Origin: an uncultured Gaiellales bacterium
Lineage (GTDB): Bacteria; Actinomycetota; Thermoleophilia; RBG-16-64-13
DNA length: 64,000 bases
Assembly (NCBI GenBank): GCA_964497095.1
Contig: CAZCCL010000001.1
Coordinates: 348-64,347, forward strand
Direction: 5' to 3'
The first letter of the stretch is position 1. The number at the start of each line of letters is the position of its first letter. Position numbers and translations under genes: made by a program. Under the pieces are notes generated by a model. That model saw only the letters and a list, made by a program, of their open reading frames with translations, ran no database searches and was not told the origin of the DNA. Shown here in pieces: positions 25,246 through 35,392 of the stretch.

Positions 25246-26463
25246 ATGGAGCTTGTACAGGTCGATCGGGGACGGATCGAAGGCCTGCGCGAAGAGAGAC
25301 GGCGCGAGTCGTCTCCGATCATCGTGCCCGGCTTCTACTCCCGCCTGGCCGAAGAAGCCGTGGCCCACCTGGTGCAGGAGACAGGGCGAGATGAGGGATC
25401 CCCTGAGGACGTCGGCTATGTGCTTGCGGTCGAGAGGCCCCACGGCGGTCACACACACATCACGCTGGTAGAACTGTATGTGACTGCGGCTTATGGGACG
25501 CGCCTCGAGGACTTGCTCGACCTGGTCCGGGAGCATCTGAAGCCCACCGCCTACCTGGTCCGCACCGACGACTGCCGGCTGAATGCCACCCTCCTTGCCA
25601 GGGGACACCAGGTGGAGGCGGCCGCCTTGGTCATGCTGGCGGAGGAGGCGGGTGGTCCTGTCGAGGACGAGGCGGCGCCAACCCCGGCGGATGCCACGCT
25701 GGCCGCGTTCGGTCTTGAGCATTTGGTCGGGCTTCGAGAATTGCTGGAGGGCGCCGCCGGCGGGCAGAGAGAGGACGGTGGAGCGCACCATCACGAAGGC
25801 GGCGATCAGGCTTCGATGGTCGATCAACTGGATGCCTTGGCCCGGCAGGGACACAACTGGGTGCTGCTGGTGGGCGGGCGTCCTGTGGCCGTGGTCGCCC
25901 GGCTGGACGGAGGAGACGGGAGGCACGAGCTGCTCGACTTGGTCGTCGCCCGCGCCGACGAAGACGTCTTGGCCTGGGCCGTCGAGCGCTGCACGGACGA
26001 GCTGCGGAGGGAAGGCCGCCGGCCTGCCGCGGTCATCGATGCGGCTGAGCCCGCCCGGAGGCGTACCTTTCGAAAGGCCGGATACTACAGCGCCGCCGCC
26101 TACATGGTCTTCTACGATCCCGAGGCCGGCAGACCCAGTGTGGGCACGATGGCGGTGCAGGAACTGCGCGAACTCATGGACGGGCGGGAGCACTTCCGGC
26201 TAATCGATGTGCTCGGGGAGAAGCACTGGCGGGCGGGTCATCTCCCCGGATCCGAGTGGATGGACTTCAGGGGTCTGGCCCGGGAGGCTCGGCGCCGGTT
26301 CGAGGTCGACGAGCCCGTCATCCTCTACTGCGACGGCTTCACCTGAGAGGCGAGCGCGATCGCAGCTGATAAGCTGCGACAGTTGGGTTTCACGAACGTG
26401 CGCGATTTCGCCGGCGGCGTGGGCGAATGGGTGGCGGCCGGCTTCCCCTTGGAGGAGTCATGA
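25246..26463 (+). CDS. GNAT-like N-terminal region fused to C-terminal rhodanese domain; in-frame TGA (26344-26346) in the rhodanese active-site loop (…VILYCDGFT-TGA-EASAIAADKLRQLGFTNVRDFAGGVGEWVAAGFPLEES). Candidate selenocysteine; alternatively a nonsense pseudogene
   Basis: The reading frame continues for 38 codons after the TGA with canonical rhodanese C-terminal residues, then ends at a proper stop at 26461. Hairpin 13 nt after the TGA. ATG at 25246 with GGGAG RBS. Confidence 0.5.
26360..26379 (+). other. SECIS-like hairpin (7-bp stem TCGCAGC / GCTGCGA, loop TGATAA) starting 13 nt after the in-frame TGA of the rhodanese ORF
   Basis: Perfect inverted repeat read from the sequence. Same 13-nt offset as the selD hairpin. 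Confidence 0.4.
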
Positions 26464-27446
26464 AGGACTCGTTGGTGGACGGCGCGGCCGTGGAGCGGCT
26501 CCTGCTGTTCTCGGGCGCTCTGCGCGCCGGTCTGATCGACGCACTGGCGAACGGAGAAGCTTCGACGGTCGAGGAGGTTTCTCGAAGAGCGGAGACCGAT
26601 CCTCGGGCTACTCAGATCGTGCTCGAGGCTCTGGCGGCGGAAGGCGTGGTCGAGCGCCTGCAGGTGGAGCCGGCGACCACAGCGGAAGAAAGCGTCCGCT
26701 ACCGCCTCTCGGAGGTGGGGAGGGAGCATCTTCTCGGCGGCGGTGCGCAGGTGGAGCGCTTCGGTCTGATGCACCAGGTGAACAAGCTGCGGGGCTGGCT
26801 CGAGCTGCCGGAGGTCATCCGCACAGGACGGCCCGTGCCTCGTGATCCGGCCAAACGCGACGTCCGCACCATGGTGGGCGCGATGGGAGAGCGCGATCCG
26901 GCCCTGCTCGATGAGATCGTGGAGAGGTGTCTGGCCTATTCCGGTCCCATCCACACCATGTTGGACGTCGGGGGCGCCGTCGGTCACGTGGCCCGGCACT
27001 TCGCGCGCTGTGGCGTGCGTGCGACCTTGTACGACCGAGAGAATGTGATCCCGTTGGCTCGCGAGTTTCTGGGAGACGAGGGCGGTGACATCGCGCTGGT
27101 AGCAGGAGACTTCACCGAGTCTCTTCCCGCCGGGCCCTTCGACCTCGTCTACTTGGGCAATGTCCTTCACATCTACAGTCCGGCCACCAACGCGCGCGTG
27201 ACCCGGTCGGTCTTCCCGATCCTTCCTCCGGGGGGGACGATCGCCGTCCAGGACCACATGTGGGGACGGAGCCCCCGGGCGGCACGGTTCGCGGTGAACA
27301 TGCTACAGGCGACCGAGGAAGGTGGGGTCCGGACGGAGGCGCAGTACCGTGAGTGGCTGACGACGGCCGGGTTCGTGAAGATCGAGGTCTTGGACCTAGA
27401 GGCGGCCGCGGTGCAGCTCATCCTGGGCATGCGGCCGCGGATCTGA
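26460..27446 (+). CDS. SAM-dependent O-methyltransferase (class I MTase with N-terminal winged-helix dimerisation domain)
   Basis: N-terminal wHTH (…LIDALANGEASTVEEVSRRAE…) and Rossmann MTase motifs (MLDVGGAVGHVARHF…). ATG overlaps the rhodanese-ORF stop (ATGA) with GGAGGAG RBS. Confidence 0.75.
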   Translation: MKDSLVDGAAVERLLLFSGALRAGLIDALANGEASTVEEVSRRAETDPRATQIVLEALAAEGVVERLQVEPATTAEESVRYRLSEVGREHLLGGGAQVERFGLMHQVNKLRGWLELPEVIRTGRPVPRDPAKRDVRTMVGAMGERDPALLDEIVERCLAYSGPIHTMLDVGGAVGHVARHFARCGVRATLYDRENVIPLAREFLGDEGGDIALVAGDFTESLPAGPFDLVYLGNVLHIYSPATNARVTRSVFPILPPGGTIAVQDHMWGRSPRAARFAVNMLQATEEGGVRTEAQYREWLTTAGFVKIEVLDLEAAAVQLILGMRPRI

Positions 27447-27524
27447 GCGGGCGTGGGTAGGTTTACGAAAACGTCCTAGCGGGCAGCCCAGATTAGACTG
27501 TGGCTTCGAACCGAGGAGGTGATC

Positions 27525-27737
27525 ATGGGCAAGGTGCCGGACACGGAAGAGAACATGGCGAAGTGCATCTGCGGGGAATGCCCGTCGAAACCTCATGACG
27601 ACATGAGCTTCTACTGTGCCAAGGGCAAGAGTCGCCAACACGTGCGCCGCCGGGGCTGTGCCTGCGGTGACTGTCCGCTCTGGCCGGCATATGGGTTGAC
27701 CAAGGGTTACTACTGTGACGAAGGTGTGACCGAGTAG
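27525..27737 (+). CDS. Small Cys-rich protein, DUF2769 family (KCICGECP…GCACGDCP motifs)
   Basis: 70 aa with two CxCGxCP motifs plus extra Cys, characteristic of DUF2769. GAGGAGG RBS. Confidence 0.6.
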   Translation: MGKVPDTEENMAKCICGECPSKPHDDMSFYCAKGKSRQHVRRRGCACGDCPLWPAYGLTKGYYCDEGVTE

Positions 27738-27745
27738 GAGCGTGC

Positions 27746-28951
27746 ATGGAGCGATATCTACTAAGGGACGACATATGGTGGGCGGGTGCCATCGATTGGG
27801 ACGTCCGTGATTTCCACGGCTACGAGACCCCGCGGGGGACCACATACAACGCTTACCTGATCCTGGATGAGAAGGTGGCCCTGGTCGATGGCTGCCGGGA
27901 GGGCTTCGGCCCGGAGGTGTTGGCCCGGATCCGCGGCTGCTGTGGCATGCGCCCGGTAGACTACCTGGTCGTCAACCACGTGGAGCCCGATCATTCGGGG
28001 GCGATCCCCTGGCTGGTGGAGCGACTGAGACCTGAGCGGATCTTCTGCTCGAAGCGGGCGAGGGACGTGCTGGGCCTTTACTACGGGGCGGAGACGGTGG
28101 ACGGCTGGAATATCCAGACGGTCGCCACCGGGGACGAGGTCTCCCTCGGGCGCAACACGTTGCAGTTCATCGAAGCGCCCATGCTGCATTGGCCGGACAG
28201 TATGTTCACCTACGTCAGAGAGGCCAAGACCCTCCTGCCCAACGACGGTTTCGGCCAGCACCTGGCCACGTCCAAGCGTTTCGCCGACGAAGTCGACATG
28301 AGCTTGGTCATGGAGGAGGCCAGCAAGTACTACGCCAACATCCTCATGCCGTTCGGGGGACAGATCCAGAAGATGCTGGCCAAGATAGGCGAGCTGGGCC
28401 TGGAGATCGAGACGATCGGCCCCAGCCACGGGGTGATATGGCGCCGGCCCGAGGACGTGTCCCGCATCGTGGAGTCGTACGCTGCGTGGAGCGACTTCCA
28501 GGCGCCGGAGCGGGTGTCGCTGATCTACGACACCATGTGGCACGCCACCGAGCAGATGACCATGGCCATCGCGGACGGCGTGGCTCAGCAGGGAGTGGAC
28601 TGCGTGGTCGCCAGACTCAGCAGCAACCCCCGGTCCGAGATGGCACGCCTGGTTCTCGAGTCCAGGGCCTTCCTGGTGGGGTCGCCCACCCTGAACAACA
28701 ATATGTTCCCGACCGTCGGGGAATTCCTCACCTACATCAAGGGTCTCCGGCCGCGTAGGCGTGTGTCCGGCGCCTACGGCTCCTGCGGGTGGGCAGGAGG
28801 GGCGGTGAAGCAGCTCGACGCGGAGCTCACGGCCCTGGGTCTCGACATGGTGGAGCCCATCGAAGTCAAGTACAGGCCGAGCAAGGCCGAGTTGGAGACG
28901 TGCGTGGAACTGGGCCGGCAGGTGGCCCGCAAAGTCAGGACCACCGGATAG
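27746..28951 (+). CDS. Flavodiiron protein (FprA/rubredoxin:oxygen oxidoreductase type; metallo-beta-lactamase plus flavodoxin domains)
   Basis: …LVNHVEPDHSGAIPWL… di-iron site region. C-terminal flavodoxin-like domain (…FLVGSPTLNNNMFPTV…). 401 aa. Confidence 0.85.
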   Translation: MERYLLRDDIWWAGAIDWDVRDFHGYETPRGTTYNAYLILDEKVALVDGCREGFGPEVLARIRGCCGMRPVDYLVVNHVEPDHSGAIPWLVERLRPERIFCSKRARDVLGLYYGAETVDGWNIQTVATGDEVSLGRNTLQFIEAPMLHWPDSMFTYVREAKTLLPNDGFGQHLATSKRFADEVDMSLVMEEASKYYANILMPFGGQIQKMLAKIGELGLEIETIGPSHGVIWRRPEDVSRIVESYAAWSDFQAPERVSLIYDTMWHATEQMTMAIADGVAQQGVDCVVARLSSNPRSEMARLVLESRAFLVGSPTLNNNMFPTVGEFLTYIKGLRPRRRVSGAYGSCGWAGGAVKQLDAELTALGLDMVEPIEVKYRPSKAELETCVELGRQVARKVRTTG

Positions 28952-28966
28952 CGGGGGAGTAGAGGC

Positions 28967-29566
28967 GTGAGCGTTACCGTGCTCGGCTTGGCAGGCAGCG
29001 CCCGCCGCGGGGGGAACACCGAGACCCTCCTCGACTGGTGTCTGGCGGCAGCTGCAGGGGAGGGTGCCGAGGTGGTCAAGTTCCGGCTCTGCGACCTCGA
29101 ACTTCACGGCTGCCGGGCCTGCGAGTCCTGCTCGCGTGACGGCGTGTGCGTGGTCAAGGACGACATGCAGTCGCTCTATCCGCACCTTAGAAGGGCCGAC
29201 TCTATCGTGCTGGCCGCCCCGGTCTACTCCATGGGCATACCGGCGGTACCCAAGATGGTCATCGACCGCTGCCAGCCCTTCTGGGCGCTCAAGTACGTGC
29301 TCAAGCAGGCCGTCGCCGAGCCGGGTGGCCGGCAGAGGTTGGGGGCGTTCCTCAGTTGTGCCGGGACCTCGTTCAGCTATGTCTTCGACGGCTGCCGGCT
29401 GGTGATGCGCACCTTCTGGCACATGCTGGAGGTGTCGCCGGCCGGAGACCTGCTCTGCCCGGGAGTGGATGCCAAGGGAGACATACTCGAGCATCCCGAG
29501 GCCCGGGAGGTGGCCGAGGATATCGGTCGGCGTCTGGGGCGCGGGCGGGGTCCGCGCACGGGTTGA
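28967..29566 (+). CDS. Iron-sulfur flavoprotein (Isf-like NADPH-dependent FMN reductase fold with compact Cys motif)
   Basis: MSVTVLGLAGSARRGGNTETLL… flavodoxin-like start. CRACESCSRDGVC compact 4-Cys motif typical of Isf. Confidence 0.7.
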   Translation: MSVTVLGLAGSARRGGNTETLLDWCLAAAAGEGAEVVKFRLCDLELHGCRACESCSRDGVCVVKDDMQSLYPHLRRADSIVLAAPVYSMGIPAVPKMVIDRCQPFWALKYVLKQAVAEPGGRQRLGAFLSCAGTSFSYVFDGCRLVMRTFWHMLEVSPAGDLLCPGVDAKGDILEHPEAREVAEDIGRRLGRGRGPRTG

Positions 29567-29821: not shown

Positions 29822-30025
29822 ATGGAGAAACGCTTGCAGCGGTCCCGGACCGAGAAGATGCTCGGCGGGGTTTGCGGAGGTCTGGCGGCTTATTTCGGCG
29901 TGGATCCCACCTTGGTGCGGGTCCTCTGGATCGCCATGACGCTGATCGTCGGGGTGGGGATCCTGCTTTACCTCATCCTGTGGGTGGTGATGCCCCTAGA
30001 GGCTCCCGCGCAGCCCTTGGACTGA
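29822..30025 (+). CDS. PspC-domain membrane protein
   Basis: …[52 protein letters not shown] matches the PspC domain consensus. Confidence 0.65.
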
Positions 30026-30817
30026 CGGCCGGGGCGGGACGAAGCCGTAGGGCAGCTCCAGATCGTAGGCCGCGAGTAGAGGTTCGTTCAGCAGTATCTC
30101 CTCGATCGGCCCGTCCGCTACGACCCGGCCCTCCGCCAGGATAAGCGCGCGCTCGCACAGTTCGTAGGCGACCGGTAGGTCGTGAGTCACGACGATCTTC
30201 GTGACCGGCAGATCCTGCAGGATGTCGATGAGCTGCCGCCGGGACTTGGGGTCCAAGTTGGAGGAGGGTTCATCCAATACGAGGACCTCCGGACGCATGG
30301 CAAGCACGGTCGCCGTGGCCACCCGCTTCTTCTGACCGAAAGAAAGATGATGAGCGGGCCGGTCTTCGTAGCCCTGCATACCCACGGCGGCGAGTGCTTC
30401 TCTGACTCGCAGGAGGATCTCGTCTTTCTCCAGACCCATGTTGACCGGGCCGAACGCCACATCCTGAGCCACGCTGGTGAGGAACAGTTGATCCTCGGGG
30501 TCCTGGAAGACCACCCCTACCCTGCGCCTTATCTCACGCAGATTCTTGTCCTCGACGTTCAGGCCGAACACGCGGAGACTTCCCGTCCCCCGCAGGATGC
30601 CGTTGAGATGAAGGAGAAGGGTGGTCTTGCCGGCTCCGTTCGGACCGATGATGGCCACCGACTCCCCCTGTTGTACGTTGAAACCGACCCCGCGCAACAC
30701 TTCGGTACCGTCCGGATAGGCGAAATGGAGGTCTTCGGCCTCCACAGCCGGCGGCTTTCCTCCGACCAAGGACAGCTCGGTCAAAGGGTGCGGCCTCGGG
30801 CTCCTCCCGTCTTTCAC
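29996..30817 (-). CDS. cbiO: ECF transporter ATPase (CbiO/EcfA)
   Basis: GPNGAGKTT Walker [17 protein letters not shown] signature, [11 protein letters not shown] Walker B. GTG start overlaps the cbiQ stop (GTGA). Confidence 0.85.
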
Positions 30818-31590
30818 AGTGACGACACCGCGCGGACGGAGACAACGAGTAGCAAGAGGCCGCCGAGGAACACGGCGTCGGTGGTCCGAAAGCGGCCCCC
30901 CTCGACCAGTCTCACCGTGCCGTCGTAGCCCCGGCTGAGCATGGCCACGTACACGCGCTCCCCGCGGCTGTAGCTGCGGAGAAACAGCGCGCTCAACATG
31001 TAGCCGAGGGTGGGAGCGTTCCAGAGCCACCGGGCTCGGTAGTTGCGGGCGGTCATGGCTCGGCGCATGCGCCGCAGTTCGTCGGCGAACACAAAACTGT
31101 ACCGGTACATGAAGCTGACTATGAGCACGAAGACCTTGGGTGTCTTCAGGCGCTCGAAACCGGACACCATCTCGGCGAAGGATGTGGTCGAGCTCAGGAT
31201 GATCATGCTGATCACGCCCAGAATGGCTTTCGCTCCCACGTTCCAGAGGACGAGCAGGCCTTCACCCGTGACCCGCATGCCCCCCAGGCTGTAGCCGCCG
31301 CCCCCCGCTTGGTGGAAGAAGGGGAGGAAGATGGCTACCACTAGGATGAAGGGCAACACCACCAGGGCGCGTCGGAGCACGTGCTTGAGGGGGAGGCGCG
31401 AGACCCCGATCAGGAAGAACAGGATGCCGGCGTAGAGCGCGTAGGGCCACATGGGTAGAGCCGGCGTGGTGACCACCACCACCGTGAAGCCGATGAATCC
31501 GAGGATCTTTGCCCGGGGATCGAGACGGTGCAGCGGGCTTTGCTCCGCGCGGATCTCGGTCAGGAAGGAGTCGGCCTCGATCAGCGCCAT
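30814..31590 (-). CDS. cbiQ: ECF transporter transmembrane T component (CbiQ/EcfT)
   Basis: 258-aa polytopic protein with CbiQ-like features (…LDPRAKIL…LSRGYDG…). ATG at 31590. Confidence 0.8.
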   Translation of the reverse strand: MALIEADSFLTEIRAEQSPLHRLDPRAKILGFIGFTVVVVTTPALPMWPYALYAGILFFLIGVSRLPLKHVLRRALVVLPFILVVAIFLPFFHQAGGGGYSLGGMRVTGEGLLVLWNVGAKAILGVISMIILSSTTSFAEMVSGFERLKTPKVFVLIVSFMYRYSFVFADELRRMRRAMTARNYRARWLWNAPTLGYMLSALFLRSYSRGERVYVAMLSRGYDGTVRLVEGGRFRTTDAVFLGGLLLLVVSVRAVSSL

Positions 31591-31622
31591 AGTGCAGTCG
31601 TCCTCACAGGATCGAGCCGGGT

Positions 31623-32693
31623 CTAGGATCGGCCGGAGGGCCCAGAAGGCGGCAAGTCGCGGATCTCGTCGTTCCTCCTCGCAGGCTGGGTGGCTGGGGT
31701 CATGCGCCGGCCTCTTCCACCAAGCGCACGGCCGGCCAGGACCACGAGCCCGAAGAGTACGACCGTGCCCGCCAGACCGGCGATGGCCGTAGCCACCCTC
31801 TCGTTGCCGACTCCGGGCAGCTGGTAGTCGCCGAGTGGAGAAAGACCCCACGTAGGTTCCTCAGCAGCCGCCTGTTCGAATCCCCTGTCCGCTGCGACCT
31901 TCTCCAGGCCATCGGGAGAGCCGGAGGCGAAGGGCGAGACGAACACCGCCAGGGCGACGGCGACGACCAGCGCACCGGCGACGAACGACCAGAAGCGCGC
32001 CCTTCCACTCATGCGCATGCCTGGTCGTCCGGCGGCGCGGCGCACCGTCTCACGAGGTAGGTCGAACGTCTTGACCAGATCGGGGCGGGTGGCCAGGACC
32101 GCAGCCACCACAGCCGTGGTGATCAGGGCCTCGCCGACGGCTATGACCATGTGTACGGAGACCATCGCGGGTAGAGCGATACGGAGCGGCGTGGTCCCGG
32201 AGACGGCCAGTTCGGCCGAAGCCACGGCCGAAGCTGCGACCACCGATATCCAGGAAGCCACGGCTACCGAGACCAAGTAACCGGACAGAGTGCGAGGAAG
32301 GAGCCTCTTCAGTCCAACGAAGACTGCATACCCGACGAAGACCGCGACCACGCCCATGTTGAACACGTTGGCTCCCAAGGCGGTGATGCCCCCGTCGGCC
32401 ATACCCAAGGCCTGGACCACGAGGACGACGGTCATCACAATCGGGGCCGACCACACTCCCAGAAGTGCGACGGCGAACATCGCCCCCAGAAAGTGCCCGC
32501 TTGTGCCGCCGGCGACGGGGAAGTTGAGCATCTGAGCGGCGAAGATGAAGGCCGCACCGACCCCGAGCAGCGGCACGGTCCTCTCGCCCAAGTCGTTCTT
32601 GGTCTTGTGGACCGCGTACGCCACCGTCCCAAGCGATACCGCTCCGGTCGCGACTGCAGTGGGGATGTTTACGAACCCGTCAGGGATGTGCAT
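31623..32693 (-). CDS. cbiM: CbiM/NikM substrate-capture component fused to PDGLE (CbiN-like) domain
   Basis: MHIPDGF… N-terminus diagnostic of CbiM/NikM. C-terminal roughly 130 aa contains the PDGLE motif plus two TM helices. AGGAG RBS. Confidence 0.8.
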   Translation of the reverse strand: MHIPDGFVNIPTAVATGAVSLGTVAYAVHKTKNDLGERTVPLLGVGAAFIFAAQMLNFPVAGGTSGHFLGAMFAVALLGVWSAPIVMTVVLVVQALGMADGGITALGANVFNMGVVAVFVGYAVFVGLKRLLPRTLSGYLVSVAVASWISVVAASAVASAELAVSGTTPLRIALPAMVSVHMVIAVGEALITTAVVAAVLATRPDLVKTFDLPRETVRRAAGRPGMRMSGRARFWSFVAGALVVAVALAVFVSPFASGSPDGLEKVAADRGFEQAAAEEPTWGLSPLGDYQLPGVGNERVATAIAGLAGTVVLFGLVVLAGRALGGRGRRMTPATQPARRNDEIRDLPPSGPSGRS

Positions 32694-32708
32694 CGCTCTC
32701 CTCTGCTC

Positions 32709-33161
32709 CTAGTCTTCCCGGCAGGCGCTGCAGAGGCCGAAGACTGTGACTTCGCGGGTCGCAAAACCCTGGTCTTCAAGCAAGGTGGTACCCAGGCCTC
32801 CCAGATCCTCGTCGTGCACGTGGGTCACCCGACCGCACGTTTCGCAGACCAGGTGGTGATGGGGGACCTCTTCTTCCACCTCGAAGAAGCGCCGAGTGGG
32901 ACCGAGGTGGGTCTCCCGGACCAGATGAAGGTCGACCAGCAACTCCAGAGTGCGGTACACGGTGGACATGTTGATGTTCGGAAACCGGTCCTGCACCCGG
33001 GCACAGACCTCTTCGGCGCTCATATGCGAGCCGTGCTCGCGGAGCACATCCCATACCAAAGTGCGCTGGGGGGTCAGTCTGTACCCCATCTCGTGGAGCG
33101 TGCGGGTGGCATGATGGGTCACGGTTCTTGCAAGCTTATTGCAATAGCCTTTTGTTGTCAA
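32709..33161 (-). CDS. nur: Fur-family metalloregulator, probably nickel-responsive Nur
   Basis: Fur-family DNA-binding helix (…YRLTPQRTLVWDVL…) and metal-site HHH/Cys residues (…HHHLVCETCGRVTHVHDE…). Directly precedes cbiMNQO. Own promoter carries a Nur box. The start is ambiguous: TTG at 33161 or GTG at 33122. Confidence 0.7.
   Translation of the reverse strand: MTTKGYCNKLARTVTHHATRTLHEMGYRLTPQRTLVWDVLREHGSHMSAEEVCARVQDRFPNINMSTVYRTLELLVDLHLVRETHLGPTRRFFEVEEEVPHHHLVCETCGRVTHVHDEDLGGLGTTLLEDQGFATREVTVFGLCSACRED
33128..33144 (-). promoter_or_regulatory. Nur-box-type operator TTGCAA-N5-TTGCAA overlapping the nur promoter -10
   Basis: Perfect TTGCAA-gctta-TTGCAA read from the sequence, matching the published Nur box (tTGCaa-N5-ttGCAA). 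Located in the nur leader. Confidence 0.55.
33133..33161 (-). promoter_or_regulatory. Putative nur promoter TTGACA-17 nt-TAAGCT (valid only if nur starts at GTG 33122)
   Basis: Perfect -35 hexamer with 17-nt spacer read on the minus strand. Under the TTG-start model the -35 is instead codons 1-2. Confidence 0.3.
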
Positions 33162-33455: not shown

Positions 33456-33488
33456 GCTATCGAACGGGAAGAAAGGAGGTGATGGTCG

Positions 33489-34556
33489 ATGGAGGCGATC
33501 CCGAGGCTGACCACGCTCTCGCACGGTTCGGGCTGAGCGTGCAAATTGGGCCCCAAGGACTTGGGGCAGGTGATGGAGATGCTGCCACGCGTGGGTGATC
33601 CCGCTCTGCTCGTGGGCGCGGATACGTTGGACGATGCGGCCGTCTACCGCGTGACGGGTGAGATCGCCCTGGTGCAGACGATCGATTTCTTCACGCCGGT
33701 GGTCGACGACCCCTACGATTTCGGTCGTATCGCCGCCGCCAACGCTTTCTCCGACGTCTACGCCATGGGCGGCCGGCCCCTGACCGCGCTCAATATTGTG
33801 TGCTTCCCTTCGGGGGTCCTGCCGTTGGAAACCCTGGGGAGGATCCTGCAGGGCGGGGCGGAGACGGCTCGGCTCGCCGGGGCTACCATCGTTGGTGGGC
33901 ACACCATCGACGACCCCGAACCCAAGTATGGGCTGGCCGTCACCGGCGTGCTGGAGCCGGGCCATGAGCTGACAAACGCCGGCGCCAGGCCAGGCGACGC
34001 CCTCATCCTCACGAAGCCGTTGGGTACCGGGGTGATCTCGACCGCCATCAAGCAGGGGACCGCCTCTGCCGAGGCCATCGCGGCCGCCACCGCCTCCATG
34101 GCGACTCTCAATCGGGGCGGGGCCGAGGTAGCTCGTGCTTGCGGTGCCCATGCGCTCACGGACATCACCGGCTTCGGCCTCCTGGGCCACCTCAGCGAGT
34201 TGTGCCGGGCGAGCGGGGTGCTCGCCGAGGTGTGGTACGACCGGTTGCCCCTGCTGGTCCAAGCAGAAGCACTGGCCCAGACCGGGGTCGTCCCGGGCGG
34301 CACGAGACGCAACCTGGAGTATGTGCAGCCCTGGACGGCGTTCGACCCCGAGTTGGAGCCTTGGCAGCACCTCCTGTGCGCCGATGCGCAGACGTCCGGC
34401 GGTCTCATTCTTGTGGTCTCGCCTGAGAAGGTGCCGGAAGCACTCGAGGCGCTGACGGCCGGAGATACCCCGGCTGCGGTGGTCATCGGCCGGGTCATCA
34501 CCAGGGAGGAAGCAAAGGGGTCCCTACTCACAGTCGGATTCGCCGGAACCGGGTGA
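33489..34556 (+). CDS. selD: Selenophosphate synthetase (selenide, water dikinase), selenocysteine-containing form; UGA-Sec at 33534-33536
   Basis: With ATG at 33489 the N-terminus reads MEAIPRLTTLSHGSG-U-ACKLGPK…, matching the SelD consensus SHGAG(C/U)GCK with TGA at the Cys17 position. The rest is a full AIR-synthase-like SelD body. The ORF caller started at 33546. Confidence 0.9.
33550..33567 (+). other. SECIS-like hairpin GCCCCAA-GGAC-TTGGGGC, 13 nt downstream of the selD UGA
   Basis: 7-bp perfect stem with GGAC loop read from the sequence. Confidence 0.6.
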
Positions 34557-34577: not shown

Positions 34578-35042
34578 TCAAACAGGCTGGACCGCGATCC
34601 GGTCGAGCAGCACCGACAGGCTCACCGTGGTGCCTCCCCCGGGAGCACGGGCGAAGCTGACCTCGTCCATGAGCGCCACCATCAGCGGCATCCCCAGACC
34701 CCTGTTTCGGGCGTCTTCCCGGGCTGGGGTTAGCCTGCGGAACGGGCCGTTGTCGGTCACGACGAAGGTCAAACGCCGGGCCTGCAGCCGGGCGCTGATC
34801 TCCAGGGGGAGAGAGTGGCCGCCGGCATGCTCGACGGCGTTGGCGCAGGCCTCGGAGACGGCCACCTTGCAGTCGAAGATCCGCTCCAGGTCGAGCGCGG
34901 CTTCACCAGCGGCCTCCTCCACGAACCGTCTTATCTCCGCGAGACGCGCCGTCTCCGCTTCAACGCGGATGACACGGTGGAACGTGAGATCGTCCGCGGA
35001 TCTCAGATCGTCAAGCGGCCGCAAGTCGTCTGTGGGTATCAA
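34578..35042 (-). CDS. rsbW: Anti-sigma factor / serine protein kinase (RsbW/SpoIIAB-like HATPase_c)
   Basis: …AVSEACANAVEHAGG…LTFVVTDNG…GLGMPLM… is typical of GHKL anti-sigma kinases. Overlaps the upstream antagonist gene. Confidence 0.7.
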   Translation of the reverse strand: MIPTDDLRPLDDLRSADDLTFHRVIRVEAETARLAEIRRFVEEAAGEAALDLERIFDCKVAVSEACANAVEHAGGHSLPLEISARLQARRLTFVVTDNGPFRRLTPAREDARNRGLGMPLMVALMDEVSFARAPGGGTTVSLSVLLDRIAVQPV

Positions 35043-35392
35043 GCCGTCACTTGTCCCTCTAGGGCGGCAGAAGCCGTCCCTTTATCCTCAAACAATTGAA
35101 AGCTGGGGTCGACGAGCAACCCCACGATCTCCAGCAGACGACGGACGTTCGCATTCGGGCCGATGACCCCGAGCGTCCCACGGTCCCGCATGAGGCGCAC
35201 CCCGGTGAGAAGCACCGACAGCCCGCCGCTATCGATGTACGTGACTTGACTCAGATCGAGAAGGACATTGCCGCTGCCCGTCTCCAGAGCCTCGGCAAGG
35301 GCCGTCTCGATGGAGCCGCAGGTACTGTGATCTATGTCTCCCCAAGCCTCGATGAGCGGCGTCTCGCCGAGACTGGTCACCCTTACATCCAT
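35039..35392 (-). CDS. rsbV: Anti-sigma factor antagonist (STAS domain, RsbV/SpoIIAA-like)
   Basis: 117-aa STAS protein with the conserved phospho-Ser context (…LDLSQVTYIDSGGLSVLL…). Confidence 0.75.
   Translation of the reverse strand: MDVRVTSLGETPLIEAWGDIDHSTCGSIETALAEALETGSGNVLLDLSQVTYIDSGGLSVLLTGVRLMRDRGTLGVIGPNANVRRLLEIVGLLVDPSFQLFEDKGTASAALEGQVTA

Follow-up and report, generated by a model that had tools for sequence, protein, structure and literature searches.

No bacterial selenoproteins are more widespread than SelD and FdhA (PMC1794560). Selenocysteine (Sec) is encoded in about 19% of prokaryotic SelD genes, always at the same position of the protein (PMC4561486), and Sec-containing SelD was listed in 2006 for Rubrobacter xylanophilus (Actinobacteria), Anaeromyxobacter, Geobacter and Clostridium (PMC1794560). 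The selD gene studied here lies on the forward strand of a 64-kb stretch of contig CAZCCL010000001.1 from an uncultured Gaiellales bacterium (hereafter, the window), at positions 33489-34556, and contains an in-frame UGA at codon 16 (33534-33536). Our analysis shows that this UGA occupies the column of the catalytic Cys17 of Escherichia coli SelD, that the protein is conserved on both sides of it and that it is followed by a hairpin under constraint at the RNA level. Sec is very probably inserted at this codon.

The UGA in the catalytic loop of selD

The selD frame is preceded by a Shine-Dalgarno sequence, AAGGAGG (33473-33479, forward strand), which can be read directly, 9 nt ahead of ATG 33489. 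Because an in-frame stop, TGA 33480-33482, lies two codons before it, this ATG is the sole possible start 5′ of the Sec codon. The start is confirmed by Cys-form relatives from the same clade, as the full-length calls P0122 and P0131, which have TGC in place of the TGA, begin at the same Met with the sequence M-x-x-IPRLTTLSHGSG-C-ACKLGP. From ATG 33489 the frame runs through MEAIPRLTTLSHGSG, the TGA at 33534-33536 and ACKLGPKDLGQVMEML and onwards to the stop TGA at 34554-34556, giving 355 codons with the Sec codon at position 16.

If the TGA is read as Cys, the 355-residue product scores 398.3 bits against TIGR00476 (cut-off 125) and 383.7 bits against NF002098 (cut-off 299), and its relatives carry PF00586 and PF02769. 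It aligns with residues 5-322 of E. coli SelD (3u0o) at E = 5e-81. In this pairwise alignment, the 3u0o stretch IRLTQYSHGAGCGCKISPK sets codon 16 opposite Cys17 and K19 opposite Lys20, and the loop SHGSG-U-ACK of the window protein faces SHGAG-C-GCK. The TGA also aligns with the Cys of the SSGCAAK loop in the SelD chain of 2yye, which we take to be, together with 2zod, a crystal form of the natively Sec-containing enzyme of Aquifex aeolicus. Further along the chain, DDAAVY is identical in the window protein and E. coli SelD, the TD.TGFG pattern is common to both (TDITGFG versus TDVTGFG), and in TIDFF/TTDFF and SDVYAMGG/SDIFAMGG the aspartates are kept; we take the individual roles of these residues to be those of the aspartate ATP/metal motifs of the PurM-like SelD fold. 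On this evidence we are highly confident that positions 33489-34556 encode a complete SelD whose catalytic N-terminal residue would be Sec, and the predicted activity is selenophosphate synthesis.

The identity of the UGA is best seen in its homologues. We sampled the 80 nearest SelD genes, at one genome per species (species-representative genomes). The codon at the Sec column is TGA in 66 of these genes and TGT or TGC in the other 14, and the peptide is conserved on both sides in all of them. The site therefore displays the Sec/Cys pairing, in which an in-frame TGA faces Cys in homologues while the protein is conserved on both flanks. The nearest relatives of the gene, 71-81% identical, come from metagenome-assembled genomes (MAGs) of uncultured Actinomycetota, Thermoleophilia or Gaiellales and from metagenome contigs, and the TGA is invariant across 14 sequences of this clade, which stem from different assemblies. 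The peptide PRLTTLSHGSG that precedes the TGA is likewise unchanged in the 14 sequences, with codons that differ synonymously; because the peptide is kept through these changes, the stretch before the TGA must be translated in frame with the rest of SelD. The Gly codon directly 5′ of the UGA (codon 15, 33531-33533) is invariably GGC across the 13 distinct sequences of the clade, whereas Gly13 is encoded by three different codons among the same 13. The invariant GGC may reflect a constraint of the upstream context on recoding.

Gene callers have largely missed this N terminus. The mechanical list of open reading frames (ORFs) opens selD at TTG 33546. The public protein P0112 opens further downstream still, with MLPRVGD at ATG 33579; this 325-residue product (33579-34556, forward strand), for which 100% identity is reported, with a single V/L difference, represents a truncated ORF and not the real gene. 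Nearly all of the 120 listed relatives have a length of about 315-345 residues, with a query coverage of 79-95%, and the exceptions seen are Cys forms (P0122 and P0131 were checked). The original prediction had read the gene in this way from the DNA alone: a true start at ATG 33489, 57 nt upstream of a called ORF that opens at an internal TTG, and placed 9 nt behind AAGGAGG; an extended N terminus that fits the SelD motif, with the UGA at the Cys17 position; and gene callers that overlook the real N terminus. Direct reading, the ORF list, the 3u0o alignment, the 66 TGA and 14 Cys codons and the short public proteins bear it out on each of these points. Its claim to novelty was overstated, as Sec-containing SelD is textbook material (PMC1794560, PMC4561486). 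The gene is correctly identified as a Sec-SelD, a well-known bacterial arrangement, and because this kind of gene is already so familiar, the value of the finding lies mainly in correcting the annotation. The correct product has 355 residues with Sec16, whereas the public fragments of 325-336 residues lack the catalytic loop and would score as inactive.

The hairpin downstream of the UGA

A hairpin, GCCCCAA-GGAC-UUGGGGC, occupies positions 33550-33567 of the forward strand. Its arms, GCCCCAA (33550-33556) and TTGGGGC (33561-33567), form a perfect stem of 7 bp that begins 13 nt past the TGA and is closed by the loop GGAC; the folding energy is -11.2 kcal/mol for the hairpin alone and -12.6 kcal/mol for the centroid. 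In the consensus for the bacterial selenocysteine insertion sequence (SECIS), an apical loop of 3-9 nt sits on a stem of 4-16 bp, one or both of the first two loop nucleotides are G, 16-37 nt separate the loop from the UGA and the energy is -7.5 kcal/mol or lower (PMC13188914). The selD hairpin falls within the consensus in all four respects: a 4-nt loop on 7 bp, a loop that starts with GG, a distance of 20 nt from UGA to loop (the 13-nt spacer plus the 7-nt arm) and the energy given above. The same hairpin, at the same 13 nt after the UGA, had been part of the original prediction together with a proposal to run a SECIS check, and that check, carried out here with the published criteria, came out in its favour on four counts of four.

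At the window's G+C content of 65.6%, hairpin stability alone is not evidence. A hairpin that fits a simplified SECIS model comes after 9.3% of the window's TGA triplets, and an equally stable one after 1.9%. Because folding energy is uninformative for the selD hairpin, we relied on synonymous-site and comparative tests. Across the 13 distinct clade sequences, non-majority synonymous codons account for 4 of 75 codons (5%) at the six positions of the hairpin (G-P-K-D-L-G) versus 91 of 242 (38%) at conserved flanking codons, a difference with p = 0.0013 in a column-level Mann-Whitney test. Near-zero synonymous variation is confined to the 18-nt hairpin segment. The Leu within the hairpin is UUG in 13 of 13 distinct sequences, whereas Leu columns elsewhere use three to five codons. 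Where the segment does vary, pairing is kept: one relative (L002) shows a synonymous compensatory change from GGC..GGG to GGU..GGA, which replaces a C-G pair with U-A, and three others (L006, L084 and L085) retain the pairing through G-U.

The presence of the hairpin also follows the identity of the codon. In the homologue set, a hairpin that complies with the simplified model is found in 63 of 67 TGA-type selD genes versus 1 of 14 Cys-type genes; this count supersedes a comparison of mean fold energy between Sec and Cys homologues, in which the difference was significant but weak. In the Cys form L163, the codons for GPKDL are GGU CCG AAA GAC CUC, so that the hairpin has been lost by synonymous changes, and in the Cys form L162 a hairpin remnant is all that is left. 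It is the comparative evidence, namely the homologue column, the synonymous constraint and the association of hairpin with TGA, that lifts the case far above chance. The hairpin at 33550-33567 is probably the SECIS that SelB would bind, a conclusion that we hold somewhat less firmly than that of Sec insertion itself.

A different possibility, which we regard as unlikely, is that Sec is inserted but SelB binds some other, larger or overlapping structure. Heterogeneity is known among bacterial SECIS elements, some of which fall outside the consensus model (PMC13188914). The minimum-free-energy fold gains outer pairs around the hairpin, and most other Sec-selD genes have their best loop at another distance. 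In a survey of the first 55 nt past the Sec codon of the selD homologues L001-L080, 63 TGA-type genes have a compliant hairpin; 49 of them place the best loop 32-33 nt past the UGA and 11, the whole clade of the window included, place it at 20 nt. The 32-33 nt class is of the GGCGCAG-GUN-CUGCGCC type and is found for the most part in Myxococcota, Methylomirabilota and Chloroflexota, among others. However, no member of the window's clade has a model-compliant hairpin at the 33-nt position, and the synonymous constraint in the clade marks the 18-nt hairpin alone. The 13-nt spacer is also near that of the minimal E. coli fdhF element, which is reported to be 11 nt. Assigning the SECIS to 33550-33567 leaves two loop positions in orthologous selD genes, and the element would therefore have been replaced or moved between lineages. 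Such relocation fits the SECIS heterogeneity already described (PMC13188914), and two SECIS positions within one orthologue, if true, would provide a clean natural system for the study of SECIS turnover.

Decoding machinery and other readings of the UGA

Several results weigh against Sec insertion at this site or against the hairpin as its signal. The 47-nt region around the hairpin folds no better than its shuffles (z = -0.5), and strict covariation is thin, amounting to one compensatory pair that is matched by 37 of 500 shuffles. Rfam returned no match at the gathering threshold across the whole window, and the only match around the site under a permissive threshold is at chance level. There is no selA, selB or selC in the 64-kb window, and in the closest clade relatives no tRNA-Sec, selA or selB lies within 10 kb of selD. 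ARAGORN detected no tRNA of any kind in the window, and Pfam scans of its approximately 70 ORFs detected no SelA, SelB, SelU, YqeB or YqeC. We infer that the Sec machinery is present in the organism, with selA, selB and selC expected elsewhere in the genome; a second gene of the window with a conserved, putative Sec-UGA, described below, supports this.

The selD loci of relatives differ in their tRNA content. Within the Sec-type clade, the window included, no tRNA occurs within 10 kb of selD. Among Cys-type selD loci from actinomycete MAGs, four have tRNA-Sec no further than about 6 kb from selD (L053, 11026-11118; L080, 11019-11110; L076, 15117-15207; L067, 4022-4114), and in L053 and L080 it is directly downstream of the gene.

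If the UGA were a genuine stop, the functional protein would be shorter, starting at ATG 33579 or TTG 33546, and the 15 codons upstream of the UGA would be an untranslated leader. Public calls treat the gene in this manner for P0112 and, with few exceptions, for the 120 listed relatives, and the failure to find Sec machinery in the window would agree with it. However, the short product would be left without the glycine-rich loop and without the catalytic Sec/Cys and Lys, the counterparts of Cys17 and Lys20 in E. coli. The peptide encoded by the 15 upstream codons is conserved despite many synonymous changes, both in the 14 sequences of the clade and in 66 distant homologues of the TGA type, Cys-form relatives are called at full length from the same Met, and a strong Shine-Dalgarno sequence precedes ATG 33489. 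Taken together, these observations make a genuine stop very improbable.

We give even less credence to a selD pseudogene or an assembly error, in which a TGC or TGT Cys codon has mutated, or been misread, to TGA. TGA is one base away from either codon, the source organism is uncultured and its nearest relatives are all MAGs, which is the setting in which such an event might be suspected. Yet all 14 clade sequences, which are independent and come from different assemblies, share this TGA, as do 66 of the 80 homologues, the remainder of selD is intact and under purifying selection, and the TGA is followed by a constrained hairpin that is absent from the Cys forms.

Genome-wide reassignment of UGA to Trp or Gly (genetic codes 4 and 25), with no Sec, is effectively refuted, as TGA ends 24 of the 49 Pfam-supported genes of the window, selD and hisD included, and the homologues without TGA all have Cys at the column. 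The other stops of these 49 genes are TAG in 23 and TAA in 2, a TAG share that appears high for a genome of this G+C content. Because TGA serves as the stop of so many genes, recoding at selD is site-specific and points to selenocysteine.

Under Sec insertion, the reading that we favour, translation would begin at ATG 33489 behind the strong Shine-Dalgarno sequence and the ribosome would reach the UGA at codon 16. There, the hairpin at 33550-33567, with its loop 20 nt further on, would act as a SECIS and recruit SelB-GTP-Sec-tRNA(Sec), leading to the insertion of Sec instead of termination. The product would have the glycine-rich loop SHGSG-U-ACK, with Sec16 and Lys19 as the counterparts of E. 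coli Cys17 and Lys20, and would form selenophosphate out of selenide and ATP. The enzyme that makes the selenium donor would thus itself depend on selenium, and selD would mark this uncultured, Thermoleophilia/Gaiellales-like lineage of Actinomycetota as a user of selenocysteine. The understanding of Sec decoding is unchanged by the selD finding.

A second UGA-containing gene and comparison with known systems

The selD gene led to a second probable selenoprotein gene in the window, which current curated models miss and which is the more novel item of the two. It occupies positions 25246-26463 of the forward strand, about 7 kb upstream of selD, and its in-frame TGA (26344-26346) was picked out when the window was scanned for TGA codons flanked on either side by coding-like sequence. 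The TGA interrupts a rhodanese domain (...EPVILYCDGFT-[TGA]-EASAIAADKLRQLGFTNVRDFAGGVGEWVAAGFPLEES) and lies five residues past the catalytic Cys, in a putative active-site loop C-D-G-F-T-U. With the TGA read through, PF00581 matches at 48 bits (gathering cut-off 22.2). The Cys of LYC aligns with the YC of the rhodaneses 6mxv and 3tp9 and corresponds to the rhodanese catalytic Cys, and the active-site loop is two residues longer than in solved rhodaneses. The N-terminal approximately 300 residues have a predicted tandem GNAT fold, with a predicted local distance difference test (pLDDT) score of 89.6.

Downstream of this TGA lies a candidate SECIS hairpin, UCGCAGCU-GAUA-AGCUGCGA (26360-26379, forward strand), with a fold z-score of -2.06. 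Its stem is a perfect 8 bp that begins 13 nt past the UGA and its loop lies at 21 nt, a geometry like that of selD. The same TGA, downstream frame and hairpin are conserved in four relatives (L086, L002, L006 and L004), in which rare A/U-ending codons are kept. The gene is found about 7 kb upstream of selD in L086, L002 and L006 as in the window, and in L004 it is partly visible at the edge of the locus. Among 101 database relatives, 92 end exactly before the TGA column, and 5 that are full-length have Cys there; Sec forms appear to outnumber Cys forms in the GNAT-rhodanese family by about 18 to 1. The short members carry the NCBI label 'rhodanese-like domain-containing protein'.

No curated model for rhodanese selenoproteins is passed by this gene. 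It scores 39.3 bits against NF041203 (rhodanese_LYCAU, with a CxU motif; cut-off 115), its own motif being C-x4-U, and 29.3 bits against NF045694 (TsoB; cut-off 805), where the match covers the rhodanese part only and the N terminus is tandem GNAT, not DsbD. It resembles the rhodanese selenoproteins of both models in having a rhodanese domain with a predicted Sec in or beside the active-site loop, and its C-x4-U mirrors the U-x4-U spacing of TsoB. It differs from them in the N-terminal tandem-GNAT module of about 300 residues, in the longer loop and in its scores below the cut-offs. A 2026 review lists five rhodanese forms, and C-x4-U is none of them. We tentatively propose that the gene represents an uncatalogued selenoprotein family of tandem GNAT and rhodanese C-x4-U, whose members may carry selenium or sulfur to SelD or to a coupled methyltransferase; this is a possibility to which we lean less than halfway. 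The second gene, with its conserved UGA and hairpin, provides independent evidence that the organism decodes Sec.

Other candidates for selenoproteins in the window were rejected. Eight pairs of ORFs in the same frame that are joined by a stop, among them hisD/hisB and ROK/methylase, are ordinary adjacent genes. A molybdopterin oxidoreductase at about 10.7-13.2 kb, considered as an FdhA-type selenoprotein, has an uninterrupted ORF and resembles AhtL, not FdhA.

Between the two UGA-containing genes, the neighbourhood is partly conserved. The start of an O-methyltransferase gene (PF00891) overlaps the stop of the rhodanese gene by ATGA, and the two genes are translationally coupled. Positions 26460-29566 of the forward strand contain, in order, this O-methyltransferase, a Cys-rich ORF of 72 residues (27519-27737), a flavodiiron protein and a flavin mononucleotide (FMN) reductase; the same order from O-methyltransferase to FMN reductase precedes selD in L163, and by its position relative to that locus the Cys-rich ORF is probably DUF2769. 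On the reverse strand, between the FMN reductase and selD (29996-33161), lie a Fur-family regulator and a CbiM(-PDGLE)/CbiQ/ABC-ATPase cluster for cobalt or nickel uptake. This cluster looks like an insertion into the conserved neighbourhood, because it is absent at the matching place in L163. Directly downstream of selD, and convergent with it, is an anti-sigma-factor-like kinase with a HATPase_c_2 domain (34578-35392, reverse strand). In L162 and L163 the kinase is followed by a STAS-domain gene, and the window has an ORF at the matching position (35039-35392); the arrangement of the kinase beside selD is thus kept in Cys-type relatives too.

Set beside known bacterial Sec-SelD, the gene of the window is alike in its membership of TIGR00476, in a single predicted Sec in the N-terminal glycine-rich loop, in a UGA followed by a hairpin within the coding region and in being prone to truncation by gene callers. 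It departs from most of the sampled Sec-selD genes in the position of the loop, 20 nt past the UGA as opposed to 32-33 nt (49 of 63). A further difference is its motif SG-U-A-C-K, in which the Cys that matches E. coli Cys19 is kept. With E. coli SelD (3u0o) it has in common HG.G.[U/C].CK, DDAAVY, TD.TGFG and the aspartates of DFF and SD..AMGG; the catalytic residue is Cys17 there and, as predicted, Sec here, and the E. coli gene needs no recoding. The hairpin is comparable to the E. coli fdhF SECIS and to the Zhang and Gladyshev consensus (PMC13188914), as each is a stem-loop in the coding region past the UGA with a small loop that starts with G. Unlike the fdhF element, however, the hairpin of the window has no bulged U and a GGAC loop in place of one containing G-U, and the two share no sequence similarity.

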